Source of the DNA: an uncultured Acidobacteriota bacterium | Lineage (GTDB): Bacteria > Acidobacteriota > Vicinamibacteria > Vicinamibacterales > CAVVIG01 | Assembly (NCBI GenBank): GCA_963773035.1 | Contig: CAVYZX010000026.1 | Span: 70,151 to 134,150, forward strand | DNA: 64,000 nt | Direction of reading: 5' to 3' | Part shown: positions 4,758-63,588 of the stretch, piece after piece | Layout: the number at the start of each line of letters is the position of its first letter | How positions within the stretch are numbered: position 1 is the first letter of the stretch | Position numbers and translations under genes: made by a program | Notes under the pieces: model-generated | What the model saw: only the letters and a program-made list of their open reading frames with translations | The model's database searches: none | Told to the model about the DNA's origin: nothing

Positions 4758-5828
4758 ATGAAACGGCTGATCGTCACGCTGATGTTGCTCGCTGCGAGCG
4801 CACCGCTCGGAGCGCAATGGTTGAGATACCCGACTCCTGGCTTGCCGCGAACCCCCGACGGCAAACCCAATCTCACGGCGCCCGCACCCCGAACGGCCGA
4901 CGGAAAGCCTGACCTGTCGGGCCTCTGGCGGCTGAACGGTTTGGGGTATTCATTCAATATCTTCGGCGCCCAGAAGGTAGAGATGCTGCCATGGGCGGAG
5001 GCCGTGTTCGCCGAGCGCAGCGCGCGCTACGGGAAGGACGGCCCTTCGGCACACTGTCTCCCTCCCGGTCCGCGTGCGGGGCTGTTCGGTCAGGAACCGG
5101 TCAAATTCGTGCAGACACCCGGGCTGCTGCTCGTGCTCTACGAGGACGCACCCACCCGTCAGATCTTCATGGACGGCCGGGAACTTCCCAAGGATCCCAA
5201 TCCTGCCTGGATGGGGTACTCAGTGGCCCGTTGGGAGGGCGACACGTTCGTCGTCGAAAGCTCGGGGTTCAACGACAGAACCTGGCTGGATCTGACCGGC
5301 CACCCGCACACCGAGGCCTTGCACGTCACCGAGCGCTTTCATCGTCTGGACTACGGTCACATGCAGCTCGAGATGACGTTCAACGATCCGATGACGTACC
5401 GGAAACCCTGGACCATTGCGGTTGACGTCGAGTTGATCCCTGACACTGAGCTGCTCGAGAACGTGTGCAATGAAAACGAGAAGGACCGCGGGCATCTCGT
5501 CGGAACCGTCGCGGACGAAAAACAGGGAGAAGTGACGGTCTCGGAGGCGATTCTGTTCAACTATGCCGGCACCTACATGGCGGGACCGTTGGGCCACATT
5601 CGAATCACGGTCGATCACGGCCATCTGGCGTTCAATCTGTCCGGTGGCGGTGGACAATTTCTCGCGTTTGCGAAATCCGAAGAAGACTTCATTCTTCCCG
5701 CTTTGGGAGGAGTGGCGCTGAAGTTCGAGAAAGACGCGCACGGCGCGGTCGCGTTCCTTCGCATCACGTCGGTTGAAGGGGACATCAGAGCACCGCGGCT
5801 GCCCGACAACGCGGGCGGAATCGACTGA
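4758..5828 (+). CDS. Exported 'WEGD-motif' family protein, subfamily B, with an extra C-terminal domain of about 100 aa
   Basis: ATG at 4758 follows a TAGGAGG SD. Signal peptide MKRLIVTLMLLAASAPLGAQ. Motifs ADGKPDLSGLW, AHCLPPG, GYSVARWEGDTFVVE, LHVTERF, DP..Y.KPW, ENVCNENE. Confidence 0.8.
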   Translation: MKRLIVTLMLLAASAPLGAQWLRYPTPGLPRTPDGKPNLTAPAPRTADGKPDLSGLWRLNGLGYSFNIFGAQKVEMLPWAEAVFAERSARYGKDGPSAHCLPPGPRAGLFGQEPVKFVQTPGLLLVLYEDAPTRQIFMDGRELPKDPNPAWMGYSVARWEGDTFVVESSGFNDRTWLDLTGHPHTEALHVTERFHRLDYGHMQLEMTFNDPMTYRKPWTIAVDVELIPDTELLENVCNENEKDRGHLVGTVADEKQGEVTVSEAILFNYAGTYMAGPLGHIRITVDHGHLAFNLSGGGGQFLAFAKSEEDFILPALGGVALKFEKDAHGAVAFLRITSVEGDIRAPRLPDNAGGID

Positions 5829-5853
5829 CGCACGCGATCAATACGAATTCCGT

Positions 5854-5949
5854 CGAACCACGAAGAGACACGAGGCACACGAAGCTCTCCACTGTAGCTT
5901 CCGGCTTAAGCCGGAAGCCACTTTCGTGTGTCTTCGTTCTTCGTGGTTT
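5854..5949. repeat. REP-like hairpin (family R1, copy 1) nested inside 'cacgaag' inverted arms
   Basis: Core is gcttccggcttaagccggaagc (5897..5918). It is flanked by gaaccacgaagagacacgaggcacacgaag and the imperfect complement ctttcgtgtgtcttcgttcttcgtggttt. Confidence 0.75.
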
Positions 5950-5987
5950 ACCAGCGATCGGCCCAGCTCTGGCGCGCCGATGATGAT

Positions 5988-7298: not shown

Positions 7299-7299
7299 G

Positions 7300-7348
7300 G
7301 CATTGATCTTCCGGCTGAAGCCGGAAGCTACACACGCGATTGATTCAC
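7300..7348. repeat. REP-like hairpin (family R1, copy 2)
   Basis: gcattgatcttccggctgaagccggaagctacacacgcgattgattcac. Lies between the MFS start and the stop of the upstream TIM-barrel gene. Confidence 0.8.
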
Positions 7349-15972: not shown

Positions 15973-16362
15973 TCAGTCTCTCAGTTTCGCCCCTTTGTCG
16001 AGCAGCAACTCGCGGAGCAGCGAGCGATGACAGCGTGACTGATCAGCGCAGTAACAGCCGACCGAGAAGTTGGTGTGGTGCGAGAGCGCAGCCAGCGTTT
16101 CCAGAACGCGTGCGATGTCCGGAGCCTTCATCTCGGCACGATAGCGCCGGGCGAATGCCTTCCACCCGCGTTCGTCCGCGACCGACAGACCTTCCTTCAG
16201 CAGCGCTTCACTCGGCGCGAGATTCGGCAGCCACACGTCGTAGAAGTTTCTCGATGCGAATTCGCTCTTGGGAACGCCCCGCGGTGGTCTGCGCACCGTG
16301 CCGATGCGAAGTCCTTCGGCAGGCGCCCGCTCGCTACCGAGGCGGACGATGCGAATGCTCAT
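15973..16362 (-). CDS. DUF488 family protein
   Basis: MSIRIVRL...YDVWLPNLAPSEALL...FSVGCYCAD..RCHRSLL is the characteristic DUF488 (YeaO-like) pattern. Confidence 0.85.
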   Translation of the reverse strand: MSIRIVRLGSERAPAEGLRIGTVRRPPRGVPKSEFASRNFYDVWLPNLAPSEALLKEGLSVADERGWKAFARRYRAEMKAPDIARVLETLAALSHHTNFSVGCYCADQSRCHRSLLRELLLDKGAKLRD

Positions 16363-16794: not shown

Positions 16795-17775
16795 TCATCG
16801 AACACCCTTCGCAGCGGCTTCGGCCTTTGCGTCATCCACGCGCGCCCCTCTGAGGATGTTCTCCAACCCGTAGTTCCCTTCCGTGCAGGCGTACTCGTAG
16901 AGCGGACCTTGCATCTGTCTCATCGGGATCTCGGCGCTCCACGATCGCGTCCACGTCGTCGGATCGTCGGCGGTGAATTCGTAGCGAATCGTATCGGCAT
17001 CGACGCGCGTGAACCGCTCGGTCACGTGTAACTTCTCTCCCGACCCCCGGAACGCGGTCTTGTCGGTGTAGTTGACCGTGTCGACAACGAGGGTGTTGCC
17101 CTCCCAATGTCCGCGCGAGTCTCCGATCCATTGATGCAAGTTCGGTCCCAGATGGGGACGTCCATCGAGAGGAATGATCCGGGCGCTATGGATCGTCTCC
17201 GTCATGACGACGACGTAGCCAGGGCTCTGGATGATTTGCAGGTTGGCGTAGTAGACGGCCGGCAGCAGCGGTGGAATGTCGGCGCCCCACGTGAGGCAGC
17301 GCTCGAGCAGCGTGCGGTTCTCCGCGGCGTCGGCCGGATTCCCACGTCGCCTCGCGCGCTCGGCCGCGCGTTTCTGCCCCTCGGGCGTCAGGGGAGGAAT
17401 TCGTCCATCACGCGGGTCGGTAATTAACGAGGTGCGTAAGCCTGAAACGCCCTTCCTGTACGTCTCGGTCTGCCAGATGGCGTCGTCGTAGTGGATATTG
17501 TCTGCGGGTTGACCGAGGAACGCGTCGATCCGCTGCTTTTCATAAGCAGCGGCCTCCTCGGCAGTGAAGAATTCTTTCCCGGCAAACTCGGCCGGGCGCT
17601 CCAGCGGTGTGAACGTCGCGTTGGTCCAATATCCTTGCAGGTCCGGCTGTCCGTCTGGCGTTCGAGTCGGCGTCCAGCTCGACTTCGTCGACGGCGCCTG
17701 ACCGGCGGACTGGGCTCCCGCAAGAGCAACAATGGCGAGGACAACGGCCGGAATGCCGATGAATCGATATGCCAT
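16795..17775 (-). CDS. Exported 'WEGD-motif' family protein, subfamily A
   Basis: Signal peptide MAYRFIGIPAVVLAIVALAGAQ. Motifs TPDGQPDLQGYWTN, ERCLTWG, RIIPLDGRPH, GDSRGHWEGNTLVVDT, LHVTERFTRVD, EYACTEGNY. Confidence 0.85.
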   Translation of the reverse strand: MAYRFIGIPAVVLAIVALAGAQSAGQAPSTKSSWTPTRTPDGQPDLQGYWTNATFTPLERPAEFAGKEFFTAEEAAAYEKQRIDAFLGQPADNIHYDDAIWQTETYRKGVSGLRTSLITDPRDGRIPPLTPEGQKRAAERARRRGNPADAAENRTLLERCLTWGADIPPLLPAVYYANLQIIQSPGYVVVMTETIHSARIIPLDGRPHLGPNLHQWIGDSRGHWEGNTLVVDTVNYTDKTAFRGSGEKLHVTERFTRVDADTIRYEFTADDPTTWTRSWSAEIPMRQMQGPLYEYACTEGNYGLENILRGARVDDAKAEAAAKGVR

Positions 17776-17814
17776 GCCGAAATGATAGCCGAGATGAGGA
17801 GCCAGGGCTCGTTC

Positions 17815-18819
17815 CTACCTCTTCAACGGCGATCGTTCCTCGGCCCGCGCTCCGGACAGTATGGCCGCGATGCCGTAGTTCCCTTCGTGGCACGCATATT
17901 CGAACACCGGACCCACAATCTTCTTCATGGGAATCTCTGCCGACCACGATCTCACCCACGTCGTCGGATCGTCGACGGTGAAGTGATAGAGGAGCGTGTC
18001 CTCGTCAACGCGAGTGAATCGCTCGACGATGTGGAGATTCTCACCGGAGCCTCTGAAATTCGTCCTGTCCGTGAAGTTGGTGGTGTCCACGACCAGCGTG
18101 TCGCCTTCCCACCGGCCGCGCGAGTCTCCCAGCATCTGACGGATGGTCTTGCCGATGTGAGGCCGGCCGTCGAGCGGGATGATTCGCGGGTCGTGAATCA
18201 TCTCGACCACGATGGCGATCGACCCTGGGCTCTGCACAATCTGATAATTGCTGCTGTAGTTGGCCGGCATCATGGGCGGCCCCGCCTGCGGCATGGAGAT
18301 GCAGCGTTCGGCCAGCGATCGATTCTCGGCGCCGTCGAAGGCCCCACCCATCCGCCGGCGCGCCTCAGCACGTTGCGCGCTGTTCCGCTCGCCCTCGGGC
18401 GTCAAGGGCGGCACCCGCCCGTCGCGCGGGTCAACTATCAAAGAAGATCGCCGGGTCGATACAGACTTGCCTCGCTCCCGCCAGAACTCGTTGTACGCGC
18501 GGCCGACGTCGGTTTCGGCCGGACCGTCGCGGCGATCGGCATTCACTTCGGTCACGGCGCGGCGCTCGAATTCATCCGCTTCCGCGTCCGTCAAGAACTC
18601 CTTCCCCGCGAACTCCGCGGGGCGTTCGAGAGGCGTCACCGTGGCGTTGGTCCAGATCCCCTCGAGGCTTGGCCGGCCGTCCGGCGTGCGCGGGAGAACC
18701 CGGGGCCGTGCCGCTGAGGAAGGAGCCTGTGCGACAACCGGCCCAGGCCCGATGCCAACGGCCACACCGACAAACGTCAATGCACCGACTGAGGCGAGAA
18801 TTCCGAGATTCATCTGCAA
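17815..18819 (-). CDS. Exported 'WEGD-motif' family protein, subfamily A
   Basis: Signal peptide. Motifs TPDGRPSLEGIWTN, ERCISMP, RIIPLDGRPH, GDSRGRWEGDTLVVDT, LHIVERFTRVD, EYACHEGNY. Lies 39 nt upstream of its paralog. Confidence 0.85.
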   Translation of the reverse strand: MQMNLGILASVGALTFVGVAVGIGPGPVVAQAPSSAARPRVLPRTPDGRPSLEGIWTNATVTPLERPAEFAGKEFLTDAEADEFERRAVTEVNADRRDGPAETDVGRAYNEFWRERGKSVSTRRSSLIVDPRDGRVPPLTPEGERNSAQRAEARRRMGGAFDGAENRSLAERCISMPQAGPPMMPANYSSNYQIVQSPGSIAIVVEMIHDPRIIPLDGRPHIGKTIRQMLGDSRGRWEGDTLVVDTTNFTDRTNFRGSGENLHIVERFTRVDEDTLLYHFTVDDPTTWVRSWSAEIPMKKIVGPVFEYACHEGNYGIAAILSGARAEERSPLKR

Positions 18820-18835: not shown

Positions 18836-19369
18836 CTAAGGCCTTTGACTCCTCGGTGGTGTAATCCCGTTCAACCGTAGATACACGGCCATCTGACCGT
18901 AAATGTCCCACGTGTGGCCGATGAGAAAGTAGATCACGCGTGCTTTCGATGAAGGCCCCAGATAGGCATTCGTCTGGATGATCTGCATCATTGATTGATC
19001 GGTCTGTTCCTTGATGAGCGCCGAGCCGTAGTCGAACGAGTCGGAGAGCGCCTTGAGGATCTCGGCTTTCGACGTGGCGCCGCGGTTGATGGACGGCGCC
19101 GCGGCTTTTCCGCCGAAGGACTGCAAATACATGATGTTTCCGCCGGCGACGTGCAGGATCTGTTGTCCATAGTCGCGCTGCGCGGGTGTGCTTTTGAACG
19201 CGAACTTCTCTTCGGGCATCGCGTCGGCGATCTTCATCATGATCGCCTTCTGATCGTCCCAGTCCTTCAGCAGTTCCGCGTTCAGGTTTGCCGACTGCCC
19301 GGCAGTCGCGCTTGGCATCGCGAGAAACGAGGCGCCGATGAGGACGAACGTCAGGAGGATCCTTCTCAT
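18836..19369 (-). CDS. DinB-family protein with signal peptide
   Basis: Trimmed to MRRILLTFVLIGASFLAMPSATA. ILHVAGGN... and LIGHTWDIYGQMAVYLRLNG resemble the DinB_2 four-helix-bundle His motifs. Confidence 0.7.
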   Translation of the reverse strand: MRRILLTFVLIGASFLAMPSATAGQSANLNAELLKDWDDQKAIMMKIADAMPEEKFAFKSTPAQRDYGQQILHVAGGNIMYLQSFGGKAAAPSINRGATSKAEILKALSDSFDYGSALIKEQTDQSMMQIIQTNAYLGPSSKARVIYFLIGHTWDIYGQMAVYLRLNGITPPRSQRP

Positions 19370-20345: not shown

Positions 20346-20356
20346 GAGTGTCTGTC

Positions 20357-21184
20357 CTACCAGCGCGACGAGCAGGGCGTGGGATCCCATTTCGCGCCGT
20401 TCGGTTCCTTCTTGAAATGAAGCCCGATCAGACGCGGCTCGCGGAGGTAGACCGGATCCTCGATCTGCGTCGTGATCGCGAGCCATTCGTCTCCGTTCTG
20501 GCGCTTGAAGACATCCCAGTACTCGGTCAGCGTCGTGTTTGCGCTGTACGGGATACCGTTCTTCCGCAAGTAACCGGGACGAAGATGCGTAGTGACGACT
20601 TTCAGCGATCCGCCCGTCGGCGCCGGCGCCGGCACGTTCCCCGCGGTTCGCGGCACAGGCCGCAGAAATAGCGGGGTGTTCGGCCGAGGGGTTTGCCACA
20701 CGCCCACCGAATCTCCCTGCCACGTCGCTGGCGCGCCACGCTCTCCCTTCCAGTCGCCAAAGTGGAGCATGCGAGTCTGCATGCCCGCATCGGTCTCGAC
20801 CTTCAGCGTGTTCTCGTCCTGCCAGGTGACATGCAGCCGGCCAGGAACGCTCATGAGGGCTGGGGCGCCGTAAGACTTGCACTGTTCGCCAGCCGCTTCG
20901 TCCTTCGCCGGATCCCAAGCGTCGGCGATCTTCTTCGCCTCGAGATTGATCGGGATGTACATGTAGTCGCCTTTGGCAGGCGTCACCATCCGCCAGCGCC
21001 AATCCTGGGTGACGACCGACACCCAGTACCCGGTCAAATCGATCGGAGCCGCGGCTTTAGGCGTCCGAGAAACAGCAGGTGGACCACCGCCCCGCTGCGC
21101 ATGAACGTAGGCGACCGCACCAGACGCCACCACAACCGATGTCACCGCCGCTATCACCGTGCGCAACACACCATCCTCCTGCAT
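20357..21184 (-). CDS. Exported divergent 'WEGD-motif'-related protein, subfamily D (member D1)
   Basis: Signal peptide. Motifs DLTGYW, EQCKSYG, WQGDSVGVW, SLKVVTTHLRPGYLRKNG, EDPVYL, PTPCSS. Lies 11 nt upstream of D2. Confidence 0.7.
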   Translation of the reverse strand: MQEDGVLRTVIAAVTSVVVASGAVAYVHAQRGGGPPAVSRTPKAAAPIDLTGYWVSVVTQDWRWRMVTPAKGDYMYIPINLEAKKIADAWDPAKDEAAGEQCKSYGAPALMSVPGRLHVTWQDENTLKVETDAGMQTRMLHFGDWKGERGAPATWQGDSVGVWQTPRPNTPLFLRPVPRTAGNVPAPAPTGGSLKVVTTHLRPGYLRKNGIPYSANTTLTEYWDVFKRQNGDEWLAITTQIEDPVYLREPRLIGLHFKKEPNGAKWDPTPCSSRW

Positions 21185-21223: not shown

Positions 21224-22252
21224 TTACTTCTTCTGCGTAAGTTCCCTGTAGACCAGCTCGACGAACCTGTCGGTGGTCCACGGACCCGAGTCCGATCCGT
21301 ATCGCCGGCGGTACGACAACGTAGGATTCGCAGCCTTCACCTGTTCCAGCGTCTTGCCTTGATCGATCAGATCCTGAATCCGGTCGCGGATCACCGTCAC
21401 CATGTCCCGGTACTCCAGCAGATCGATTTTGTCGAGTACGCGACCGTGGCCGGGGACCAGGAGGGTACGGTCGGGATTCCACTGAATGGGAAGGTTGGGA
21501 ATGCTCAAGTCCATCAGGTGGTTCAGCGCGTCGATCTCACCCTGCAGCGTCCCACCCTTTTCCACATCGATCACCGGGAAGCGAGTGGTGTCGATGATGT
21601 CGCCGGTCGCGATCACGTCGCCGCGCCGGAAAAAGACGATGGTGTCGCCGTCGGTGTGTGCCGCCGGCTCGTGAATCACCTGGATTCCTTCGCCGTTCAA
21701 GTACATGGAATAGGTCTTGGCAGCAAACGTCTTCGTTGGCCACAGTCCGAGCGGGAATAGAGACTGTTTGCCGGTTGGAGCAGACATCCGCGTCAGGACG
21801 TTTTCGTGCGCCAGCACGCTGGCGCCGCCTGAATTGGTCACCAGGTCGTCGCTCAATCCAGCCCCGGCCGCAATCGCACCAGCCAGGATGCTGAGTCCCG
21901 CTTTCGCGATCGTCTCGTTGCCACCGACATGGTCGGCTTCCATGCTTGTATTAATGATGTAGCGAACCGGCAACGGCGTGATGCGCCGGATCGCCGCCAA
22001 CACTTTGTCCGACATCGCCGTCGAACCAGAATCCACCAGAATCACGCCCACTGGACCGATCTGGATGACGATGTTGCCGCCGGCTCCTGCGATGACGTAG
22101 AAGTTCGGCCGCAGCTCGATGACGTCGAGAGCGTCACGGCTGGGCTCCTGGGCGATCGCGTTCGGCGCCCGGACCGCAGGAGCGAGAATTGCCGCGAACG
22201 TGAGCAGCCAGGCCGCAACCCGCCCGCTGAAAAGACTAGCCATTCGGTTCAC
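21224..22252 (-). CDS. MBL-fold protein, exported, with a degenerate metal motif (SMEADH instead of HxHxDH)
   Basis: Signal peptide MNRMASLFSGRVAAWLLTFAAILAPAVRA. Overall collinear with the MBL at 1860..2939, but the motif reads NTSMEADHVGGN. Keeps AHTDGD and PGHG. Confidence 0.75.
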   Translation of the reverse strand: MNRMASLFSGRVAAWLLTFAAILAPAVRAPNAIAQEPSRDALDVIELRPNFYVIAGAGGNIVIQIGPVGVILVDSGSTAMSDKVLAAIRRITPLPVRYIINTSMEADHVGGNETIAKAGLSILAGAIAAGAGLSDDLVTNSGGASVLAHENVLTRMSAPTGKQSLFPLGLWPTKTFAAKTYSMYLNGEGIQVIHEPAAHTDGDTIVFFRRGDVIATGDIIDTTRFPVIDVEKGGTLQGEIDALNHLMDLSIPNLPIQWNPDRTLLVPGHGRVLDKIDLLEYRDMVTVIRDRIQDLIDQGKTLEQVKAANPTLSYRRRYGSDSGPWTTDRFVELVYRELTQKK

Positions 22253-24016: not shown

Positions 24017-24463
24017 TTAGGGCTGCGGCGAAGGCTTCTGATTCAGTTCGTAAGGCGCCCCGGTGCCGGACGATCCCATGAACAGCCTCTTGCCATCTTC
24101 AAACGTGATATCCCGCCCATTCGCCCTGTGCGTCCCGTCCTTCGCCTGGTAACCGTCAATGGCGACCACAGTACCTGGCAGAAGGGACTTTCTCGTGAAG
24201 CCGCGCCGAAAGAGCACGTTTGGAGTGCCCGCCTCGAACGCCCAGTTCTCCACTTTGCCGTCCGGCTTCTTGACATCCAGGTGCAGCCAGACGTGCGGGT
24301 TGACCCACTCCATCTTCGTGACGGTCCCCTTCATCGTCACGGGCTTGTTCGCGTCGAACTCGGCGGCGAACGCGTGGTGCGCCGACAGCGACGCGGCTGT
24401 GACGACCAGAGAGAGACCGAGCCCCGCGGCAGCAACGACGAGCTTCGTTTGCATCTGATTCAA
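24017..24463 (-). CDS. Small exported DUF6152-like protein; predicted mature N-terminus is HHAFAAEFD
   Basis: Signal peptide ...VVTAASLSA followed by HHAFAAEFD, then GTVTKMEWVNPHVWLHLDV. Paralog of 26832..27296. The family name is from memory of the AHHSF...NPH pattern. Confidence 0.75.
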   Translation of the reverse strand: MNQMQTKLVVAAAGLGLSLVVTAASLSAHHAFAAEFDANKPVTMKGTVTKMEWVNPHVWLHLDVKKPDGKVENWAFEAGTPNVLFRRGFTRKSLLPGTVVAIDGYQAKDGTHRANGRDITFEDGKRLFMGSSGTGAPYELNQKPSPQP

Positions 24464-24499
24464 CCTCCTGCGGTCAACTGCGCTCCTCGGATTGACTGC

Positions 24500-25471
24500 T
24501 CACCTTCGGTACCACTCGTGGAGCTTGTCGCCTTCCGGAACCTTACGCGTGATATCGACGATGAGCGTCTCACCCTCCCAGTGCTTGACCAGCGGCTGCC
24601 TGCGCAGGCCGCCGTACATGAACTCTTCAGCGAACTCCATGCAGCGGTATTCGAGCAGCTGCGCGTTTGGTTCCAACCGTCGATAGAGCGGCATGGAGAT
24701 CTTCCACGGCCCGGTGAACACGTTTGGATCCTCGATGGTGACTTCGTACTGGATCGCGTCCTTTGTGATCGGGGTGAAGCGCTCAATCAAATGCAGCGCT
24801 TCGCTGTGATAGTTGCCGGCCCTATCGAACCAGTTCTTGCCGTTGAACTCCGTGACGTCCACGACCAGCGTATCGCCTTCCCACCGGCCGACCGAATGTC
24901 CCATGTAGGTCAGGTCCGGCGGTTCTTCCACCTCGTCGAGGTGGATCGTACGGCCGGTGCTGCTGAATTCGAACGCCATGTGAATCTTGTTGGCGCTCTG
25001 GAAGATCTGGAAAGGATAGGGCATGTACATCGCGCGCGGAATGCCGGGAAGATAGCACTTGAGCTCGGGATCGCGGTCGATCCAACTCTCGCCGTTCTCT
25101 TTCTTGATTTTCGCCGCCTCCGGCTTATAAGGAATGAGGCCGCCGCCTTCGATAACACCTACCGAACCGGGAACTCCGCCCGCTGCACCGAGCGCAAGCA
25201 CGGGCGCCGCGGCTACTCTCGTGTATTCGAATGGATAGGCGCCTTGTTGCGTGACCGCAGCCGGTCGCGCCTCATGAGCCTCGAGGTCCCAATGCGCTTC
25301 GTTCAGCGCCTGCCAGATTCCGCTGAAATCCGGCTTGCCATCGGCTGTACGCGCCACGGTTGGCGTTTGTGACCGGCGACCGGACTGCGTCACTGCCAAG
25401 GTGACAAGGGCGCCAACCACCGCCGCTGCTGCCGCAACAGCAATCGTCGAACCGCTGAACTGACGTGCCAT
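24500..25471 (-). CDS. Exported 'WEGD-motif' family protein, subfamily B
   Basis: Signal/TM N-terminus. Motifs ADGKPDFSGIW, LKCYLPGIP, GHSVGRWEGDTLVVDVTEF, LHLIERF, EDPNVFTGPW, EYRCMEF. Confidence 0.85.
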   Translation of the reverse strand: MARQFSGSTIAVAAAAAVVGALVTLAVTQSGRRSQTPTVARTADGKPDFSGIWQALNEAHWDLEAHEARPAAVTQQGAYPFEYTRVAAAPVLALGAAGGVPGSVGVIEGGGLIPYKPEAAKIKKENGESWIDRDPELKCYLPGIPRAMYMPYPFQIFQSANKIHMAFEFSSTGRTIHLDEVEEPPDLTYMGHSVGRWEGDTLVVDVTEFNGKNWFDRAGNYHSEALHLIERFTPITKDAIQYEVTIEDPNVFTGPWKISMPLYRRLEPNAQLLEYRCMEFAEEFMYGGLRRQPLVKHWEGETLIVDITRKVPEGDKLHEWYRR

Positions 25472-25480: not shown

Positions 25481-26746
25481 CTATCTGGTCAACGGATTGG
25501 CTTCCTCTCCAGTGTCGGCAAATCCGCCGGCGAATCCGCCGCACCCCGCGCTGCACAATGTGGCCGGATCCGGCCCACGCCGTTGAGCGAAAGCTTTCTC
25601 CTCCGCGCGCGCGCCCGCGAGCAGGGCTGGCATACCGTAGTTACCTTCGTGGCACCGCGGTTCCTTGTAGATGCGGTTGGCCCGATCGGGCTGCTTGGTA
25701 TATTCCTGTTTCACTGTCCATGGACGGGTCCACGTGGTTGGATCCTCGATCTTTACGACGTACTCCAGCGTGTCCGCATCGACACGAGTCCAGCGCTCGA
25801 CCAGGTGAAGGTTCTCGCGCGAACCCTGGAAATCGGTCTTGGGCGAAAAATTGGTCACATCGACCACCAGCGTCTGACCTTCCCATCGGCCTCGCGAGTC
25901 GCCCCACCATTGGCGGATGTGCTCGGGGAGGTGCGGCCGATCGGTGATGGGAATCACTCGCTGCCACCCTTGGCCCTGCCCCGTGTCGTAGAAGATAGAA
26001 ACCGCCTGGGGCGACTGAATGATCTGCGGGAAGAAGCCGGCGGCTCCGCCGAAGTCCGGGAGCATGGCGGCCATGCATCTCTCACCGAGCGTCCGATCCT
26101 CGGGGCCGTCGGCGCGATTGATGGCGCCCCCGCCTGCGCCACCGGCGGCCACGTACGATGGCGGCGTTTCCGGACGTTTGGGTGAGGGCGGGCTGTACTT
26201 TCCGCCTTCGCAGCCTGGGAGCTTGTTCTTGCAGACGTCGGTCGGTTGAAGCAAGGCGAGCTGGAACTCACGCATGGCCTGCCTGCGCTTCATGGCTTCC
26301 GGAGTCAGCGGCGGAATCTTGCCGTCCGGAGGATCGATGATCAGCGACGTGCGGCGGCCCATCGGTTTGTGCGTCAGAAAGATGTTCGTCGCGTAGGCCC
26401 CACCCACGTCTTGCTCGCTTCCTCGCTCGTAGCGCCGCACGTCTTGGCTCACGATAGCGGTGCGCTGCTTGTCGAGCTCCGCCCGCTCTTCGTCAGTGAA
26501 GAACTCTTTGCCGGCGTAACGGGCCGGCCGTTGCAATGGGACCTCGTAGGTGTTGGTCCAGATCCCTTGCAGATCTGGAGCGCCCCATGACGTCTTCGGT
26601 GCAGGGCCCGATTTCTTTGCCGTTCCGTCGAGTGGTGCCGGTGTCTGCGTCTGACCTTTGACTGAAGGCGGTCCAAGCTTCAGCAGGAACGCCAGCACGA
26701 GCAACGCCACCGCCACACCAATCGACTGCAGAGATCGCTTGGCCAT
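25481..26746 (-). CDS. Exported 'WEGD-motif' family protein, subfamily A (longest A member; carries a Cys- and Pro-rich insertion)
   Basis: Trimmed to MAKRSLQSIGVAVALLVLAFLL. Motifs APDLQGIWTN, ERCMAAM, GDSRGRWEGQTLVVDVTNF, LHLVERWTRVD, PRCHEGNY. Insertion is ...CKNKLPGCEGGKYSPPSPKRPETPP... Confidence 0.85.
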   Translation of the reverse strand: MAKRSLQSIGVAVALLVLAFLLKLGPPSVKGQTQTPAPLDGTAKKSGPAPKTSWGAPDLQGIWTNTYEVPLQRPARYAGKEFFTDEERAELDKQRTAIVSQDVRRYERGSEQDVGGAYATNIFLTHKPMGRRTSLIIDPPDGKIPPLTPEAMKRRQAMREFQLALLQPTDVCKNKLPGCEGGKYSPPSPKRPETPPSYVAAGGAGGGAINRADGPEDRTLGERCMAAMLPDFGGAAGFFPQIIQSPQAVSIFYDTGQGQGWQRVIPITDRPHLPEHIRQWWGDSRGRWEGQTLVVDVTNFSPKTDFQGSRENLHLVERWTRVDADTLEYVVKIEDPTTWTRPWTVKQEYTKQPDRANRIYKEPRCHEGNYGMPALLAGARAEEKAFAQRRGPDPATLCSAGCGGFAGGFADTGEEANPLTR

Positions 26747-26831: not shown

Positions 26832-27296
26832 TCATCGCGATCGAACGGGCGCGTCGGCTGCCTTGGGATTCTTGGCCTTCCAACGATCCAGGGCCTGTTG
26901 ACCGATGTTGCCGACGTCGTTCGGCAGCGTAATGCTGCCGTCCGCATGCTGCACGAATTTCAAGACACCTCCCGGTCGACCGTCTTTGAGCGGCCCGGCG
27001 AGAACCATCACCTTCGAACCGACCTTGTAGGTGTCGATGTTGATCCCCTTGGGAATGAGCTGCGCGACGGCAGCGGCCTCGAACGACCAGTCCGTCTGCG
27101 TCCCGTCAGGATTGGTCACCGTGATGGTGAGCCACGAATGCGGGTTGATGAGCGCCCATTGTTTGACCACGCCCGTGACGGCAATTTCGGCGTCGGGCCG
27201 CATGTCGAACATGTTGAACGAATGATGCGCGAGCACCGGCTTACTGGCGAGTGCACCAACAAGGACGACAACGGTTCCGACAGATCGCAGATTCAT
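26832..27296 (-). CDS. Small exported DUF6152-like protein; predicted mature N-terminus is HHSFNMFD
   Basis: Signal peptide ...ALASKPVLA followed by HHSFNMFD, then GVVKQWALINPHSWLTITV. Starts 22 nt after the stop of the upstream subfamily-C gene. Confidence 0.75.
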   Translation of the reverse strand: MNLRSVGTVVVLVGALASKPVLAHHSFNMFDMRPDAEIAVTGVVKQWALINPHSWLTITVTNPDGTQTDWSFEAAAVAQLIPKGINIDTYKVGSKVMVLAGPLKDGRPGGVLKFVQHADGSITLPNDVGNIGQQALDRWKAKNPKAADAPVRSR

Positions 27297-27318: not shown

Positions 27319-28254
27319 CTACCGCGATTTGCTGCTTTCCGGCGTTCTCGTCACGTCGTTCTGAGGCTGCTTGTGGCCCTGTTCCCCAGGAAGAATCGTC
27401 GTGGTTTTGCCGTCAGCTCCGAGCACGTCGTTGCTCGTCAAGGCGCAGTCCCAATAGCGAATCCGATACTCGTAGTCGGCCTTGACGTAAGACATCGCGA
27501 CGTTCCATGGAGCGGTGAGGCCGACCGAATCGTACATGGTCGCCTGCACGACGATGCGGTCGGGCCGGCCGTTCTGGCCTTTGACGCGCTGCCACACCTC
27601 GATGCCCTGGAGCTCTGCGCTGTTGTCGGGATACCCACGCAAGTAGTCCGCAGCCTTGACGGCGGTCGTCCAGACGACGAGCTTGTCGCCGTCCCAGAAA
27701 CCGATTGAATCACCGAGCCATGTGTGCCCTTCAGGTGTGGCGTGAGGGCTGCCGTCGGTGTAGACGCGGCGCGTCTCGTTCATGTACTCCTGCATCAGCC
27801 ATTGCTGTTTCACACCGAGCGCGAATTCCTTGTGATAGGGCTCGACGAGCCAGCGCGGGTAGGCCGACGGCTCGCAGTGCGTCAGCCGGTCGTAGTAGAC
27901 CTCGCCGATCTCACGTTCCTGTCTTTGCTTTTCTTCGTAGTTGGCGCGATAGGCGGGCGAGAGCGGCGCGTCGACCGGATGGGCCATGCTCATGGTCGCG
28001 ATGCCCGACTGCCAGATCCCGGACCAGTCCGGAAGCGAGGTGACTGTATGTTTGGTGCCGCCGTTGGCGTTCTTGAGGAGAGCGTTGTAGTGCTCCTCGG
28101 CTGACGCATATCGCGCCGGCGGCTGAACAACCCGTTCACGCTGTTCCGGCAACGACCCAAGCGCCTCACGTTGCGCGAGCGCACTGGGCATGAACGCGAC
28201 GGCACAGGATAGACAGAGGCCGGCGAGCGCCAACGACCTGGTGAGAACCCTCAT
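27319..28254 (-). CDS. Exported 'WEGD-motif' family protein, subfamily C (W-D-G-D variant)
   Basis: Trimmed to MRVLTRSLALAGLCLSCAVAFMPSALAQ, with a GGAGG SD upstream. Motifs LPDWSGIWQ, THCEPSAYPRW, LGDSIGFWDGDKLVVWT, YWDCAL. Confidence 0.8.
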   Translation of the reverse strand: MRVLTRSLALAGLCLSCAVAFMPSALAQREALGSLPEQRERVVQPPARYASAEEHYNALLKNANGGTKHTVTSLPDWSGIWQSGIATMSMAHPVDAPLSPAYRANYEEKQRQEREIGEVYYDRLTHCEPSAYPRWLVEPYHKEFALGVKQQWLMQEYMNETRRVYTDGSPHATPEGHTWLGDSIGFWDGDKLVVWTTAVKAADYLRGYPDNSAELQGIEVWQRVKGQNGRPDRIVVQATMYDSVGLTAPWNVAMSYVKADYEYRIRYWDCALTSNDVLGADGKTTTILPGEQGHKQPQNDVTRTPESSKSR

Positions 28255-33390: not shown

Positions 33391-33483
33391 AGCGGTCTAC
33401 TCTATCAGCTTGAGAAGTGACGTGAGCATCGAGTCTTGCCGGAGCGACACGAAGGTCGTATGCTCCAAGCGGTCTCAGCGAAA

Positions 33484-39073: not shown

Positions 39074-40507
39074 GTGTCGCAGATGCATCAGTCGAAAAGC
39101 ACGCGCGCTGTTGTCGGTGCGCTGATCGTGGCAACCTCGCTCACGTGCTCGACGAGCGACAAGTCGCAAATCGGATTCAAGAGCGTGGGGCGCGGCGCCC
39201 CTCTCACGCCAGCCATCCCCGCCGACCTCTGGGCGAAGGCCGACGACATCGAGGCGTTTCCCTTCACCGAGATCAAGGACTATCCGGAGAAGCACTGGCT
39301 CGTTGGCCCGTTCGATCCCGCAGCCTCCGGCAACCGGCTGACCGGATTCGTCGGCTCCGCACAGAACGGCGCCACACCGGAAGGGATCGAACCGTTGAAG
39401 GTCGACGTCTTCACGTCCAAGGACTTCTACGCCGACCGCGCGCTTTGGACCGACAAGCGGTACTTCCGGTGCAACAGCCCCTATGGTCTCGAGGCGCAGT
39501 GGCGGGGCGGGATGATCGGGGACAAGCCACCGGCCTCGGCTTCATGGGGCTTCTGCGATCGCGACTACCCGCGGGAGGCGATCGTCAGCCCCTATACGTT
39601 CAAGACGGCACAGGCTCACTACGAGGCGCTGCTCGACGAGACACGCCGCCGCGGCGGGCCGACAGAGCACACCTACGCCACGGTGCCCGGCGAGTGGAGC
39701 GGGCGCTACGTGTGGCACCGGGGACAGAACTGGTACGCCGAGCTGCTGTGGAATCAGTATCCGACCATCCTGTCGCTGCTCACCGACGAGTACCAGACGC
39801 GGATGGTGCAGGAGGCGTATCACGACGCGCACGACAACGCGCCGCAGTGGCCGGCGCAGTACTGCTGGCCCGAAGGCTTCATGCGGCGCTGGCACTACCA
39901 TGCGGTCACGAACCAGCCCCATTCGGTGATCGTCACACCCACGCTCGTCCAGTTCCTGGCCGGTGACGCCGACAACTTCATCACCAACGTTCACATCGGC
40001 CGCTCGTTCAACATGGACGGCGGCGCACCGCATCTCGGCGCTGAGGTCCCGCGCTGGTACGGCGACACGATCGGCTTCTGGGATGGCGACGCGCTGATCA
40101 CCTGGACGTCGAACATCCAGGGCTGGAAAGTGCACGGAAACCCGGAGTTCTCGAGCAAGCTGCAAACCGTCGAAATCTACACGTCGAACCGAGACAAGGC
40201 CGGCAAGCTTGTGGGCCTGGACCACGAAGGCATCTTTTACGATCCGGAAGCACTCGTGGAACCGATCCGAATGCTCCGCACGCTCGAGCGGAACAGCGGC
40301 TTCGAAACCGGCGAGCCCTACACTTTCATCGAGTGCATTCAGACGATCTTCCCGATCGACGGACGCGCCAAACCGGTGGTCGCGGGTACTGTCGTTCCCT
40401 ACAAGGTGCCCAACATGTACGACCGACCCTGGGCGAAGATCTGGGAGGAACACCACGAGAAAGGCATGCAGCGGCCGCCAGAGAAGGAGATCATTTCCTT
40501 CCGCTGA
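39074..40507 (+). CDS. 'WEGD-motif' family protein, subfamily C, long form (possible lipoprotein)
   Basis: N-terminal ...[17 protein letters not shown] is lipobox-like. Motifs [46 protein letters not shown]. Collinear with 27319..28254, plus an N-terminal extension of about 150 aa. Confidence 0.75.
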
Positions 40508-40597
40508 TCTAACACGTCTGGCTCCCACATCGGGGTACGCCACTGCGCATCGGCCTCGTGAGGTAGCCGCGCGACGTGACGCACCCCCGCCAGACTC

Positions 40598-43401: not shown

Positions 43402-44295
43402 TCAATCGATCTTGACGAGCCGCCGGAACTGCTGATTCTCGTTGCAGATGAACTCGATAATCTCATCGTCGGGCGCGATCTGCTGATTGACGCGAACCGT
43501 AACCGGTCTCGTGTAGGCCTTCGAATCGTCAAGCGTGACGTCGATTTCCAACCTGCCGTATGTCGGCCGGCGAATGCGCTCAGTGAACCTGGCCTGGTCC
43601 GTGTAGGGGCTGCCGCGCACGTCGAGCCATCCGTCGTAGGGGCCCGATTCCGCTCCCCTCAAGTTGTTGGTCTCGACGACGAGCGTGTCGCCTTCCCATC
43701 TTCCTACCGAGTACCCGTACCAGAACGGCTGCACACTGCCCTGCGGCGGCAGCGTGCGCCCGTCGATGTAAATGTAGCGAAGGCCGTAGTTCGCCTCGTA
43801 CATGATCGCGATCACCCCGGAGTTCTGCATGATCTTGCGCGGCTGGCCATGCGTGTGGAACTGCGTCAGACCCATCGGCAGGCAATTCGCATCGGGGTTT
43901 TCCTTGTTGTCCGCGGCCATCCGCTGCTTCTTCAACTCTTCAGCCCATGGCGTGAGCGGCAAGCCCCCCGGGACGTTCGCGCCGATCTCCCAGAAGGCGG
44001 CAATCGGGGGCGAGTTCGGATCCGTAGGCGGCGCCGGCGTCTGGGCGGCAGCCGGCCGGTTGCGGAACAGACCGGCGAGCTCCGGGGCGGCGAAGGCCCC
44101 TTCGCCTCTGATCCGGATCCAGTTGCCCGTCAAGTCGGGCTTCCCATCCGGCATCCGCGGCGTCGGAGCGTCCATCCGGACACCGCCCTCCGCGTCGCGC
44201 GGGACGCCAGGAGCCTGATACTTCGGCCACTGTGCCGCCGGTGACACCGAACATATCGCGACGATGACGCCTACGACTGCGATTGCGCGTCTCAT
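43402..44295 (-). CDS. Exported 'WEGD-motif' family protein, subfamily B
   Basis: Signal peptide MRRAIAVVGVIVAICSVSPAAQ. Motifs PDGKPDLTGNW, ANCLPMG, GYSVGRWEGDTLVVETNN, FTERIRR, EFICNENQ. Confidence 0.85.
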   Translation of the reverse strand: MRRAIAVVGVIVAICSVSPAAQWPKYQAPGVPRDAEGGVRMDAPTPRMPDGKPDLTGNWIRIRGEGAFAAPELAGLFRNRPAAAQTPAPPTDPNSPPIAAFWEIGANVPGGLPLTPWAEELKKQRMAADNKENPDANCLPMGLTQFHTHGQPRKIMQNSGVIAIMYEANYGLRYIYIDGRTLPPQGSVQPFWYGYSVGRWEGDTLVVETNNLRGAESGPYDGWLDVRGSPYTDQARFTERIRRPTYGRLEIDVTLDDSKAYTRPVTVRVNQQIAPDDEIIEFICNENQQFRRLVKID

Positions 44296-60701: not shown

Positions 60702-62045
60702 ATGAAGAAGAGACGACTGCTCCTTGCGCTCGTGATCGTCGCGGGCGTCGCGATCGCCGCGCTCTCGGCTCAACCCCCACAAGGCTCGCCCGCGCCATTG
60801 GCTCTGGTCGGCGGCACGCTGATCGACGGAGGGCCGGGTCAGCCGGTCCGCAACAGCGTGGTGCTGATTCGAGGCGATCGTATCGAGAAGGTGGGAACCG
60901 TCGAATCGCTGCCGGTTCCAGCAGGCTACGAGCTAATTCCCACCGAGGGGATGACAGTACTGCCGGGCCTCTGGGACCTGCACGTCCACCTTATATATAG
61001 CGGCCACCCGAACGCCCGCTATTGGTTCAAGTACGCCGCCGAGTTCGAGAAGGTCACGATACCTGCGGCCGCCGAGCAGATGCTGATGGCCGGCGTCACG
61101 AGCCTGCGCGATCTCGCCGCGCCGGCTGCCGCCATCCTCGCCGTCAAAAAACGCATTGCGAACGGTGAGATCCCGGGGCCGACGATGTACGTCGCTGGTC
61201 CGGCGCTGACCGGGAACCGCACCGCGACTCTCACGCCACAGTTCCTGGCCATTCAGGACGCCGCCGACGCACGGGCCAAAGCCAAGAAACTCATCGACGA
61301 TGGCGTGGACGTTGTCAAGATCTTCAACCCCGAGCTGATGTCGGTCGAGGAGCGTCGCGCGATCGTCGCCGAGGCGCACGGACGCGGATTGAAAGTGGCG
61401 GCCCACGGTACGACCGACCGAGACATCCGCCTCGGACTCGAATTCGGCGTGGACGACTTTCAACACATCGGGGCTGACACCCCCGAATTTCCTGCCGACA
61501 TCGTCGCGGCGATCCGCGAGCGCGTGCGGACCGGCCCGCCGCTCTATTGGACGCCGACGATTGGCGCGAACGGGCTGCTCAACCTGCCATATCTCGCGAC
61601 GCACCCGGAATTCGTCGACGATCCGGCGGGCTTTCGCGGTCTGCCACTTCCGCTGGCCGAGGATGTCCGCAAAGGGTGGGCCGAATTCAAACCGCCCGCG
61701 GTAAATCCCAGCACAGTGCCAAACGTGAAACGTCGGATTGCGCAGCTCCAAGCGCTGGGTGTCATCCTGGCGTTTGGTACCGACGAAGGCAGCATGGGAC
61801 AGATCCCCAGTCAATCGACCTGGATGGATGCAGACCTGTGGGTGCGCGAGATCGGGATGGAGCCGATGACCGTCATCCGCATGATGACGTCGGAGGCCGC
61901 GAAAGTTCAGGGCGTCGATCACACCGGCACGGTGACCGCAGGGAAGTACGCCGACGTGGTCGCGGTCCGCGGCGACCCGTTGCGGCATATCGACGTCCTG
62001 CGTGAGCCGAAGATCGTCATCAAGCACGGTCGCCGCTACCGCTAG
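60702..62045 (+). CDS. Amidohydrolase family protein, exported
   Basis: Trimmed to MKKRRLLLALVIVAGVAIAALSA. LVGGTLIDGG...VLPGLWDLHVHL metal-binding start. VAAHGT... and ...FGTDEG... later motifs. Confidence 0.85.
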   Translation: MKKRRLLLALVIVAGVAIAALSAQPPQGSPAPLALVGGTLIDGGPGQPVRNSVVLIRGDRIEKVGTVESLPVPAGYELIPTEGMTVLPGLWDLHVHLIYSGHPNARYWFKYAAEFEKVTIPAAAEQMLMAGVTSLRDLAAPAAAILAVKKRIANGEIPGPTMYVAGPALTGNRTATLTPQFLAIQDAADARAKAKKLIDDGVDVVKIFNPELMSVEERRAIVAEAHGRGLKVAAHGTTDRDIRLGLEFGVDDFQHIGADTPEFPADIVAAIRERVRTGPPLYWTPTIGANGLLNLPYLATHPEFVDDPAGFRGLPLPLAEDVRKGWAEFKPPAVNPSTVPNVKRRIAQLQALGVILAFGTDEGSMGQIPSQSTWMDADLWVREIGMEPMTVIRMMTSEAAKVQGVDHTGTVTAGKYADVVAVRGDPLRHIDVLREPKIVIKHGRRYR

Positions 62046-62185
62046 CTTCCCGCCATGGCCAGATAGCGGCCCCAGCCCCCTACGGCTCAGCTTCAGCAGT
62101 CCCTTTTTTTATCGGCGCCATACGAATGACACACTTCCGGAGTCTGATAGGAGAAGCCAGCGTCCGAGCCGGAGGTCAAGTGAAC

Positions 62186-62554
62186 ATGGAAGGAACCCGA
62201 GAGACGGGTCCCCGCATCGCCAAGGGACAAGACCCCGAATATCCGTGGGGAATCAAAGAAGTCAATCTCAGCGTTAAGGGAGAACGCTGGCAGGTCCACC
62301 TGTCGGATGTGTGGGCCCTCAATCCGCACTGGTTCGTCCGGTTCATCGCAACCGGTCCGCAGACGTGCACGATCTTCGTGGGTACCGATCGGGCTCCGAA
62401 CACCAATGAGGAGTGCCGCCGGCTTATTGCCTACGTTCTCGACTCGTTGGTCCGCAGCGATCGGCGCTCGTTTGTCTTTCTCGATTTGACTGCGAAGCGT
62501 GAGCCCGCCGGGAGTTCGTTTGAGGCAACGAATCTCGGCGACCTCGCCGGTTAG
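62186..62554 (+). CDS. Orphan hypothetical protein (122 aa from the ATG at 62186; the track ORF starts at 62126)
   Basis: GGAGG upstream of the 62186 ATG. No recognisable motif. Codon third positions look less GC-biased than in the neighbours (by eye). Overlaps the convergent gene's stop by 4 nt. Confidence 0.35.
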   Translation: MEGTRETGPRIAKGQDPEYPWGIKEVNLSVKGERWQVHLSDVWALNPHWFVRFIATGPQTCTIFVGTDRAPNTNEECRRLIAYVLDSLVRSDRRSFVFLDLTAKREPAGSSFEATNLGDLAG

Positions 62555-63588
62555 CGCACTGAGGAGTCGGCGTGCCCTCCGGCCGCAGCCTCCTCATCGC
62601 GCGCGGTGCTCAGGATGTTCTCCATCGAGAGATTTCCTTCGTGGCAGGCGTACTCGAAGATCGGACCGTCGGATCGTTTCATCGGGATCTCTCCAGTCCA
62701 CGGCCTGGTGAACGACTGCGGGTCGTCGACCGTGAATTGGTAGAGCAGCGTGCTCTCATCCGTGCGCGTGAAGCGTTCGACCACGCGCAGGTGTTCGCCG
62801 GATCCTCTGAAGTTGGTCATACCGGTGAAATTCGTCGTTTCGACGACAAGCGTCGTACCTTCCCAACGGCCACGGGAGTCGCCCGTCAGACGCTGCACGT
62901 TCTTGGAGAGATGAGGGCGCCCATCCAAGGGAATGATGCGAACGTCGTGAATCATCTCGATGAGAATCGCGACGAATTCCGGCGCCTGCAGGATCTGATA
63001 GTTGTTGTTGTAGCCGGCCGGCATCATCGGCGGACCCGCGTTCCCCCGCACGATACAGCGGTCCGCCAATGAACGGTCTTCCGGACCGTCGGCGGGACGT
63101 GCTCTCCTCGCGGCTGCGGCGTCGGTGGCTCTCTTCTGAGCTTCAGGTGTCAGCGGAGGAATTCTCCCGTCCGGCGGATCGACGATGAGGGACGTCCGCC
63201 TGGTCGACACGACCGCTGCTCCTCGCTCCCACCAGACGTCGTTGTAGCCGACAGCGAGGTCGGCCTCGGCGTTGCTATCGCGGCGATCGGCATTGTTTCG
63301 CGCCCGCAGCTGTCGGGCATATTCAGCCGCTTCCGCTTCTGTGAAGAATTCTTTCCCGGCGAGCTCGCGAGGGCGCTCGAGTGGCGTCAGCGTAGCGTTG
63401 GTCCAGATGCCCTGCAGGTCGGGCTGCCCGTCGACAGTCCGAGGCAGAGTCCAAGGCTTGGCTTTTTCGGTCGCAGTCTGGCCGGCTATCAACGCAGGAG
63501 CGAGCGTCGCCAACGCAACGGCTACGAACAGTCCGGCCTTGAACGCCACCAATCGGCACCTCGACATGCTTGCCTTGACGTCTCTCAT
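62551..63588 (-). CDS. Exported 'WEGD-motif' family protein, subfamily A
   Basis: Signal peptide ...LVAFKAGLFVAVALATLAPALIAGQ. Motifs VDGQPDLQGIWTN, DRCIVRG, RIIPLDGRPH, GDSRGRWEGTTLVVETTNF, LRVVERFTRTD, EYACHEGN. Alternative start at 63567. Confidence 0.85.
   Translation of the reverse strand: MRDVKASMSRCRLVAFKAGLFVAVALATLAPALIAGQTATEKAKPWTLPRTVDGQPDLQGIWTNATLTPLERPRELAGKEFFTEAEAAEYARQLRARNNADRRDSNAEADLAVGYNDVWWERGAAVVSTRRTSLIVDPPDGRIPPLTPEAQKRATDAAAARRARPADGPEDRSLADRCIVRGNAGPPMMPAGYNNNYQILQAPEFVAILIEMIHDVRIIPLDGRPHLSKNVQRLTGDSRGRWEGTTLVVETTNFTGMTNFRGSGEHLRVVERFTRTDESTLLYQFTVDDPQSFTRPWTGEIPMKRSDGPIFEYACHEGNLSMENILSTARDEEAAAGGHADSSVR

Follow-up and report, generated by a model that had tools for sequence, protein, structure and literature searches.

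What is the group of twelve related, predicted exported proteins encoded within one 64,000-nucleotide (nt) stretch of an uncultured Acidobacteriota genome, and what might these proteins do? The stretch (contig CAVYZX010000026.1, positions 70,151 to 134,150; hereafter the window) comes from a member of the Vicinamibacterales, in a phylum that counts among the most abundant and least understood of the soil. A first-pass annotation had picked out the twelve genes because they share an ordered set of motifs and two cysteines behind a signal peptide, and had presented them as a heavily amplified family and the best candidate for an undescribed system. We find that the twelve are paralogs, that their family is without annotation, broadly distributed and organised in tandem, and that the genes of a second uncharacterised family, DUF6152, almost always adjoin a member of it. 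Two structure models predict that the core of the family is a barrel of the calycin type.

The twelve genes, designated in the text by their first coordinate, are as follows (lengths in amino acids, aa):

4758..5828 (+): B member, 356 aa, extra C-terminal domain of ~100 aa; 448 bits against the B profile
16795..17775 (-): A member, 326 aa, second gene of an A-A tandem; BLASTP 54% identity to 17815, E ~1e-113 to 1e-118
17815..18819 (-): A member; likely true start ATG at 18813, 332 aa
19392..20345 (-): D member, 317 aa, proline-rich tail; A+B profile E 1.5e-12, hhalign 96.5% probability
20357..21184 (-): D member, 275 aa, most divergent copy; BLASTP to 19392 3e-7, A+B+C profile E 1.1e-4
24500..25471 (-): B member, 323 aa; 500 bits against the B profile, cysteines 139 and 277
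25481..26746 (-): A member, 421 aa, Cys/Pro-rich insert and C-terminal CxxxC; 517 bits against the A profile
27319..28254 (-): C member, 311 aa, W-D-G-D variant; A+B profile E 3.5e-14, hhalign 96.7%
31472..32512 (-): A member, 346 aa; BLASTP to other A members 1e-80 to 1e-91
39074..40507 (+): C member, 477 aa, long N-terminal extension; BLASTP to 27319 ~5e-14, A+B profile 1.4e-6
43402..44295 (-): B member, 297 aa, most compact copy; AlphaFold2 model, homologs 71-99% identical (best 120 matches listed)
62551..63588 (-): A member, 345 aa; BLASTP 60% identity to 17815, E ~1e-135 to 1e-138

All twelve open reading frames (ORFs) lie where the first-pass annotation had placed them, 4758 and 39074 on the (+) strand and the other ten on the (-) strand, and they sum to 12,420 nt, i.e. 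19.4% of the window. All-against-all BLASTP recovered the proposed split into four subfamilies: A with five members (16795, 17815, 25481, 31472 and 62551), B with three (4758, 24500 and 43402), C with two (27319 and 39074) and D with two (19392 and 20357). Within A, the four members other than the insert carrier 25481 are 45-60% identical to one another, and 25481 is 35-43% identical to those four. The start of 17815 is more likely the ATG at 18813: a GGAGG stands before it, and the close homologs have a length of 332 aa. The additions attributed to single members were all found: the Cys/Pro-rich insert of 25481, the proline-rich tail of 19392, the C-terminal domain of 4758 and the N-terminal extension of 39074, which has no Pfam family match. 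The lipobox-like site of 39074 exists as S-L-T-C, but it is non-canonical.

Whether the twelve form a single family depends on the divergent subfamilies C and D. A profile built from A and B recovers the C members at E 3.5e-14 and 1.4e-6 and the D members at 1.5e-12 and 1e-3. The next ORF of the window follows at E 1.6, a clear gap below the family members, and profile searches of the window ORFs found no thirteenth member. With hhalign, A+B aligns to C over 144 columns (96.7% probability, E 3.3e-10) and to D over 136 columns (96.5% probability, E 7.6e-10). By these leave-out profiles and profile alignments a C-terminal core of ~140 residues is homologous in all twelve proteins, which are thus, by sequence comparison, paralogs of one family; their N-terminal halves differ among subfamilies. 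The weakest member is 20357, linked to the others chiefly via 19392 (BLASTP 3e-7). That its direct BLASTP comparisons with A, B and C members are not significant would fit shared motifs arising by coincidence, with C and D unrelated to A and B. This explanation is contradicted by the leave-out profiles and hhalign (E 1e-14 to 1e-3), and we regard it as hardly credible.

Each of the twelve proteins has an N-terminal hydrophobic segment that is, by a heuristic criterion only, compatible with a Sec leader. The export proposed in the first-pass annotation thus appears sound, and the proteins would be Sec-exported and presumably periplasmic. The motif PDLxGxW is found in 12 of 12 genes, the W being invariant and the G present in 11 and gap-aligned in 39074. 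Across 162 diverse sequences the G of this motif is conserved in 96% and the W in 86% (otherwise Y or F). The most conserved positions in the same set are Cys1 and E265 (99% each), R211 (98%), Cys2 and D283 (97% each), E311 (96%), G230, G234 and W236; E205 and Q195 (94% each) are near-invariant as well.

Of 653 aligned homologs, 648 have both cysteines. In the remaining five, which are C/D-type sequences, a cysteine is shifted by one or two columns. In the window, too, the second cysteine is conserved, but in the C and D members it is displaced by one to a few alignment columns. The mature A and B proteins have two cysteines and no more, separated by 134-146 residues (for instance Cys100 and Cys237 only in 4758, 160 and 297 only in 16795), with the exception of the insert variant 25481, which has additional cysteines at 172, 179, 398 and 402. 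Correlated loss of the two cysteines was sought in the 653 homologs, and essentially no losses were seen. On the general grounds of probable export and of exactly two conserved cysteines, a disulfide between them is likely.

No named domain covers the core of these proteins, as the first-pass annotation had suspected. For all twelve, hmmscan against Pfam-A at E<=1 gave only a sub-threshold DUF3471 (PF11954) in the C-terminal domain of 4758 (residues 258-337, E 4.9e-6, 27.3 bits for a gathering cut-off of 29.3 bits). The core matched none of the Pfam lipocalin-type families (PF00061, PF08212, PF13924, PF13648, PF11954, DUF2147 and others) above the gathering threshold. A search of the twelve proteins against NCBIfam gave no match, nor did searches of PDB sequences with profiles of 12 and of 53 sequences. 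With one A-type and one B-type protein as queries, none of the best 120 homologs listed has a precomputed Pfam domain, and those with a name are all "hypothetical protein". In the literature on Acidobacteria paralogs and lipocalin-like proteins we found no description of the family; the combination of Acidobacteria and lipocalin gave analogy only.

The family is nevertheless very large. Counted as representatives of 50%-identity clusters, the matches to a profile of the twelve proteins number 31,049 at E<=1e-3, 16,812 at E<=1e-10 and 3,587 at E<=1e-30. Genomic contexts were collected with two peptide patterns of subfamily A, for which a single genome of each species was scanned; the best 80 of at least 599 matches were analysed as loci of ~20 kb, and adjacency was scored from six-frame hidden Markov model (HMM) matches. 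Since the scan started from a subfamily-A alignment, these loci are biased to A-type genes. They come mostly from metagenome-assembled genomes (MAGs) of Bryobacterales, Vicinamibacterales and other Acidobacteriota, with one Gemmatimonadota MAG and one "Candidatus Rariloculaceae" MAG. The 80 loci hold 192 family ORFs (mean 2.4, median 2 and maximum 8 per locus), 105 of which have a same-strand family neighbour. In this A-biased sample the adjacent pairs are B-then-A in 27 cases, A-then-A in 20 and A-then-B in 7, i.e. mixed pairs outnumber A-then-A pairs.

The idea of an amplification restricted to this locus or lineage is therefore not borne out: the family spans ~31,000 clusters and tandem arrays are typical of it. 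As such arrays are the norm, the copy density of the window is only moderately high, and twelve copies in 64 kb are on the high side without being exceptional for the family. The paralogs of the window are 22-60% identical to one another, and the two used as queries, 17815 and 43402, each have a 98-99% identical counterpart elsewhere (98% for P0001, the counterpart of 17815). The low mutual identity and the near-identical counterparts indicate that the duplications are old and, for the tested copies, maintained. Separately, six homologs (P0121, P0126, P0187, P0197, P0258 and P0242) show two to four matched stretches, that is, internal tandem domain duplication, and the N-terminal region of P0242 resembles squalene-hopene cyclase repeats (E 2e-10).

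For the fold of the core we used two AlphaFold2 models, computed from separate alignments of only 51-53 sequences: 17815 for the A-type (predicted local distance difference test, pLDDT, 75.6; predicted template-modelling score, pTM, 0.74) and 43402 for the B-type (pLDDT 77.0, pTM 0.77). In both, a short N-terminal strand bearing the G-x-W motif (pLDDT >90) is followed by a mostly helical segment of 90-130 residues predicted with mixed confidence, and then by eight antiparallel strands over the conserved core (pLDDT mostly >90), which makes 9-10 strands overall. The top Foldseek matches in the PDB are, for both models, FABP, CRBP and CRABP (E 7e-4 to 3e-3, probability 0.96-1.0, target-normalised template-modelling score, TM, ~0.5), the best for 17815 being CRBP/FABP at E 7e-4. 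The B-type model additionally matches FABP-like tardigrade SAHS proteins and streptavidin.

The match is weak but consistent, and the core is thus predicted to be an up-and-down beta-barrel of the calycin type, FABP/avidin-like. The first motif of the first-pass annotation, [PA]-D-[LF]-x-G-x-W, presumably represents the G-x-W hallmark that calycins carry in their first strand, and R266 and R269, both present in the sequence, are candidates for the basic residue (Arg/Lys) that packs on the Trp in calycins. The same placement is indicated by two fusions, that of a homolog (P0210) to a C-terminal Lipocalin_5 (PF13924, E 2e-23) and that of 4758 to the sub-threshold DUF3471, which we take to be lipocalin-like. 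Both models and Foldseek thus argue against a new fold. The family has the predicted calycin architecture and the G-x-W strand, yet by every sequence-based test it falls outside the known calycin families.

The first-pass annotation had also named genes of DUF6152 among the neighbours. The window holds two of them, each directly downstream of a family gene:

24017..24454 (-): DUF6152 gene, 45 nt downstream of B member 24500-25471; PF19649 E 3.8e-33, 113.9 bits, cut-off 27
26832..27296 (-): second DUF6152 gene, 22 nt downstream of C member 27319-28254; PF19649 E 6.7e-25, 87.5 bits, cut-off 27

The genome loci contain 42 DUF6152 ORFs. Immediately upstream of 29 of these is a family ORF on the same strand, and nearly all the others stand directly upstream of a family ORF. 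The reciprocal test used metagenome contigs, independently sampled and scanned with a DUF6152 alignment. Among 61 such loci with at least 300 nt upstream, a family gene is directly upstream in 55 (35 B-type and 20 A-type) and elsewhere in the locus in a further 4. The commonest order is B-type, A-type, DUF6152 (12 of 29 classified cases). Thus DUF6152 is a near-obligate operon partner of family genes, an association that is new. The proposal of an undescribed system gains real support from this adjacency, which the first-pass annotation had named as a point for checking only.

DUF6152 proteins keep ten positions invariant: H26, H27, F29, D34, N52, P53, H54, W56, W71 and E74. The end of the leader reads A-H-H invariantly and, if cleavage occurs after the Ala, the mature protein probably starts with His-His; N-P-H, an Asp and a Glu are invariant as well. 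An N-terminal His-His recalls histidine-brace metal sites, e.g. that of the copper protein CopC; in such sites the first His of the mature chain provides both its amine and its imidazole, joined by another His or an Asp as ligand. The predicted His-His end together with N-P-H, Asp and Glu suggests a metal site, and DUF6152 may bind a metal. A phmmer search with DUF6152 found no similarity to any solved structure in the PDB, NCBIfam gave no useful match for the partner and neighbour genes, and our literature search found no paper mentioning DUF6152 or DUF6644. DUF6644 proteins lie in the membrane and resemble CopD (E 3.6e-4) and DUF2214 weakly, below the threshold. Of the 34 metagenome loci that extend far enough downstream, 7 have two tandem DUF6644 genes no more than 2.5 kb past the DUF6152 gene, on the same strand in 6 of the 7 (examples of such pairs are L085 1998-3304, L086 4539-5840 and L105 4656-5710). 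The window contains no DUF6644, PQQ (pyrroloquinoline quinone) dehydrogenase or reaction-centre-type cytochrome c gene.

How could these observations be explained together? The explanation that we prefer, tentatively and at a little under an even chance, is that duplication has produced a diverse set of periplasmic barrels that bind or carry ligands, and that some of these work with a metal-binding partner. The PDLxGxW strand and the ~140-residue core (RIIPLDGRPH ... GDSxGxWEGDTLVV ... ERFTR ... DDP..W) would form a calycin-type barrel of FABP-like topology, with the mostly helical insert of 90-130 residues after the first strand, at the position of the short helical lid of FABP. One cysteine would lie just before the second strand and the other just after the last, and their putative disulfide would staple the C-terminal tail to the junction of lid and barrel. 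The proteins would be binders or carriers of small molecules, possibly binding-dependent catalysts. Small-molecule binding would be the basic activity, and ligand specificity would have diversified through repeated tandem duplication. In a core subset, a B-type and A-type pair would work with DUF6152.

Several points weigh against this explanation. The structural matches are weak (TM ~0.5, root-mean-square deviation 4.5-9 A, 10-15% identity). Several strands are hydrophobic on both faces, an ambiguous pattern for an internal ligand cavity, so the sheet may pack on the helical region without an open cavity. Both cysteine regions have pLDDT below 50-65, and the models lend the disulfide no structural support. 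Several invariant charged or polar residues (R211, E265, D283, E205, Q195 and E311) would suit an enzyme equally. A DUF6152 neighbour, finally, is found at only ~1/5 of family genes, so this partner cannot explain the whole family.

The same near-invariant polar residues of the core are the starting point of the main rival explanation, which we consider somewhat unlikely: the proteins would be periplasmic enzymes on a calycin-like scaffold and the paralogs isozymes for different scavenged organic compounds. Such scaffolds have precedents in allene oxide cyclase, lipocalin-type prostaglandin D synthase and violaxanthin de-epoxidase. Orthologs are strongly conserved (71-99% identity among the best 120 matches listed for 43402), and the neighbours in the window are mostly hydrolases and oxidoreductases, with operon-like strings that include an amidohydrolase and cupin or metallo-beta-lactamase (MBL) and DinB genes. 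However, we recognised no catalytic motif and found no sequence match to any enzyme family in Pfam-A, NCBIfam or the PDB, and the invariant Glu, Arg and Asp may serve the structure as salt bridges. Moreover the neighbours beyond family genes and DUF6152 are not conserved, an 82%-identical ortholog of 43402 lying in a different context. If the emphasis is placed on DUF6152 instead, the family and its partner, sometimes with two DUF6644 proteins, could make up a periplasmic relay, for metal handling or for redox, with the Cys pair serving as metal ligands or as a redox-active dithiol instead of a structural disulfide. The near-obligate adjacency, the predicted mature His-His of DUF6152 with its invariant NPH, D and E, reminiscent of the CopC brace, the DUF6644 pairs in 7 of 34 metagenome loci with their weak similarity to CopD, and the recurrence of PQQ dehydrogenase and cytochrome c genes near family genes all fit such a relay.

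We nonetheless judge a relay decidedly improbable. Besides the two cysteines no His/Met/Cys cluster is conserved across subfamilies, the His residues of RPH and CHEGN in A being absent in B. The sequence of DUF6152 resembles neither CopC nor any solved structure, the CopD match is under the Pfam threshold and most family genes have no DUF6152 neighbour. The PQQ/cytochrome association is loose (1-9 genes), uncorrected for the shared ancestry of the loci, and has no counterpart in the window. A further explanation would make the family structural or envelope proteins without ligand or catalysis, such as outer-membrane-tethered or adhesin-like scaffolds whose copies provide surface variation. The leaders on all twelve, the proline-rich tails and inserts and the lipobox-like site of single members, and the internal tandem duplications of some homologs are compatible with it. 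But the proline-rich and lipobox features are confined to those single members, the core appears as a compact globular domain with invariant polar residues, and each tested paralog has 98-99% identical counterparts across metagenomes, unlike diversifying variation; we find this explanation very improbable. A lanthanide/XoxF connection and an unclosed barrel of the LolA kind were considered as well, and no result of the analysis supports either.

The carrier explanation can be extended to a previously undescribed periplasmic system made of B-type, A-type and DUF6152 proteins, plus two CopD-like DUF6644 proteins in 1/5 of cases. The barrel pair would capture a small molecule (e.g. a metallophore, cofactor or isoprenoid), after which the partner with its brace-like histidines would deliver or extract a metal; the system would occur widely in soil Acidobacteriota, Gemmatimonadota and some Proteobacteria, and the many solitary paralogs would supply the same pathway as variants of differing specificity. 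This extended proposal we consider doubtful.

Comparison with known systems places the family near the calycins but inside none of their described groups. Like FABP, CRBP, CRABP and the wider calycins (lipocalins, avidins) it has, as predicted, ~10 antiparallel strands and G-x-W in the first, and like FABPs a helical element inserted after the first strand, ahead of the remaining strands. In FABP this lid is a helix-turn-helix of ~20 residues between strands A and B, whereas the insert of the family measures 90-130 residues. The iLBP/FABP proteins proper are cytosolic and of ~130 aa; the family members have leaders and 275-477 aa. The family also differs from iLBPs and calycins in general by the conserved Cys pair, the tandem heterotypic gene pairs and the DUF6152 partner, with no sequence-profile match and a TM of ~0.5.

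Blc, YceI and ZinT/YodA are exported calycin-like barrels of diderm bacteria that are proposed or known to carry lipids, isoprenoids or metals. DUF2147/HP1028 has been proposed as a hopanoid shuttle, HpnT (10.1101/2025.07.29.667474). These four resemble the family in being exported calycin-like barrels, as the family is predicted to be. They are however single-domain proteins of ~150-200 aa, without long insert, Cys pair or DUF6152 partner, and the Pfam models of Blc, YceI, ZinT and DUF2147 gave no match to the twelve proteins at E<=1. Lipocalin_5 (PF13924) and DUF3471 (PF11954) are lipocalin-like modules of unknown function that are C-terminally fused to single members, the core itself being unmatched. 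For the partner, the closest analogy is CopC/CopD: DUF6152 is small, exported and has a predicted N-terminal His, and the adjacent DUF6644 membrane proteins are weakly CopD-like. Unlike CopC/CopD, DUF6152 has no detectable CopC similarity, the CopD match is sub-threshold and DUF6644 is missing from the window.

Two strings of genes, each on a single strand, are conspicuous in the window, and the neighbours named by the first-pass annotation (DUF6152 twice, MBL twice, DinB) are real. Two of the non-family genes lie inside the first string:

18836..19369 (-): exported DinB-family gene between D and A genes; DinB PF05163 E 1.5e-9, DinB_2 5e-7
21224..22252 (-): metallo-beta-lactamase-fold gene heading the MBL, D, D, DinB, A, A string; Lactamase_B E 3.5e-11

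This string reads MBL 21224, D 20357, D 19392, DinB 18836, A 17815 and A 16795, all on the same strand. The second, a five-gene string from 28254 down to 24017, also on one strand, starts with C 27319 and continues with DUF6152 26832, A 25481, B 24500 and DUF6152 24017, with gaps of 9-85 nt. An amidohydrolase, a cupin and a B member form another operon-like string. The neighbours in the window comprise two MBL-fold genes, two amidohydrolases, a sulfatase, a cupin, a glyoxalase and BBE/FAD oxidases, and further an MFS transporter, DinB, a Ser/Thr kinase, an IS5-type transposase and others.

The DNA of the window is ~95% identical to a metagenomic contig of 77.5 kb (L001, the contig of homolog P0006), which keeps the gene order of the MBL, D, D, DinB, A, A string. 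A segment of ~1.35 kb of L001 (8083-9428), with a PF00144 beta-lactamase-family gene, is missing in the window at ~19384, between the D gene 19392-20345 and the DinB gene. The counterpart of 19392 in L001 is annotated as 359 aa, 42 aa longer. As the stop in the window falls inside the region aligned at ~95% identity, 19392 is shorter through a frame or stop difference and not through truncation by the indel. Downstream of the A-A tandem lies a DUF488 gene of the "active N3a" subclade (15973-16362 (-), E 5e-45), in the same order in L001.

Elsewhere in the window, an IS5-type transposase gene (46484-47632 (+), DUF772 E 3e-27 and DDE_Tnp_1), the only obvious mobile element, lies between amidohydrolase and aminotransferase genes. 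A Ser/Thr protein kinase fused to PD40/WD40-like beta-propeller repeats (33937-36588 (+)) is preceded by a small c-type cytochrome gene (33421-33891 (+)). A predicted membrane protein of 526 aa with weak, sub-threshold NqrB/RnfD similarity (22304-23884 (+)) is convergent with DUF6152 24017. Searches of the window for tRNA genes and Rfam matches gave none.

Long antisense ORFs lie over family genes at 17491-18717 (+), 19395-20420 (+), 24128-25372 (+), 39542-40543 (-) and 43363-44244 (+). They recur in many related loci, reach up to ~1,000 aa across two adjacent genes and are conserved enough to cluster by BLAST. A recurrent neighbour cluster that resembled a "CxxCH cytochrome" was discarded for this reason: about 13 of the 22 ORFs in it are long, run antisense to family genes and had been picked wrongly by a simple gene caller based on GC content at third codon positions (GC3). 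The CxxCH motif is present in only seven of the 22, one of which overlaps a family ORF, and phmmer against the PDB with the CxxCH protein gave no match. PQQ dehydrogenases near family genes amount to 43 clean genes in ~31 of the 80 loci (L002-L081), 1-9 genes away, in loci that are phylogenetically related. With such loose distances, such relatedness and no copy in the window, we set this link aside as evidence and keep it as a lead only.

A family of ~31,000 clusters at 50% identity, without a name in Pfam, NCBIfam or the PDB, takes up nearly one fifth of a 64-kb region of this genome; large unannotated families are common in metagenomes. Should its members prove to be generic carriers, what is gained is the definition of a new family, useful in itself, and no new principle. 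The calycin placement and the DUF6152 partnership nevertheless turn a set of "hypothetical proteins" into a testable hypothesis, that of periplasmic barrels working with a histidine-rich, probably metal-binding protein. If this is true, tens of thousands of genes would be annotated, and the family could reveal how these oligotrophs capture or process scarce compounds or metals.

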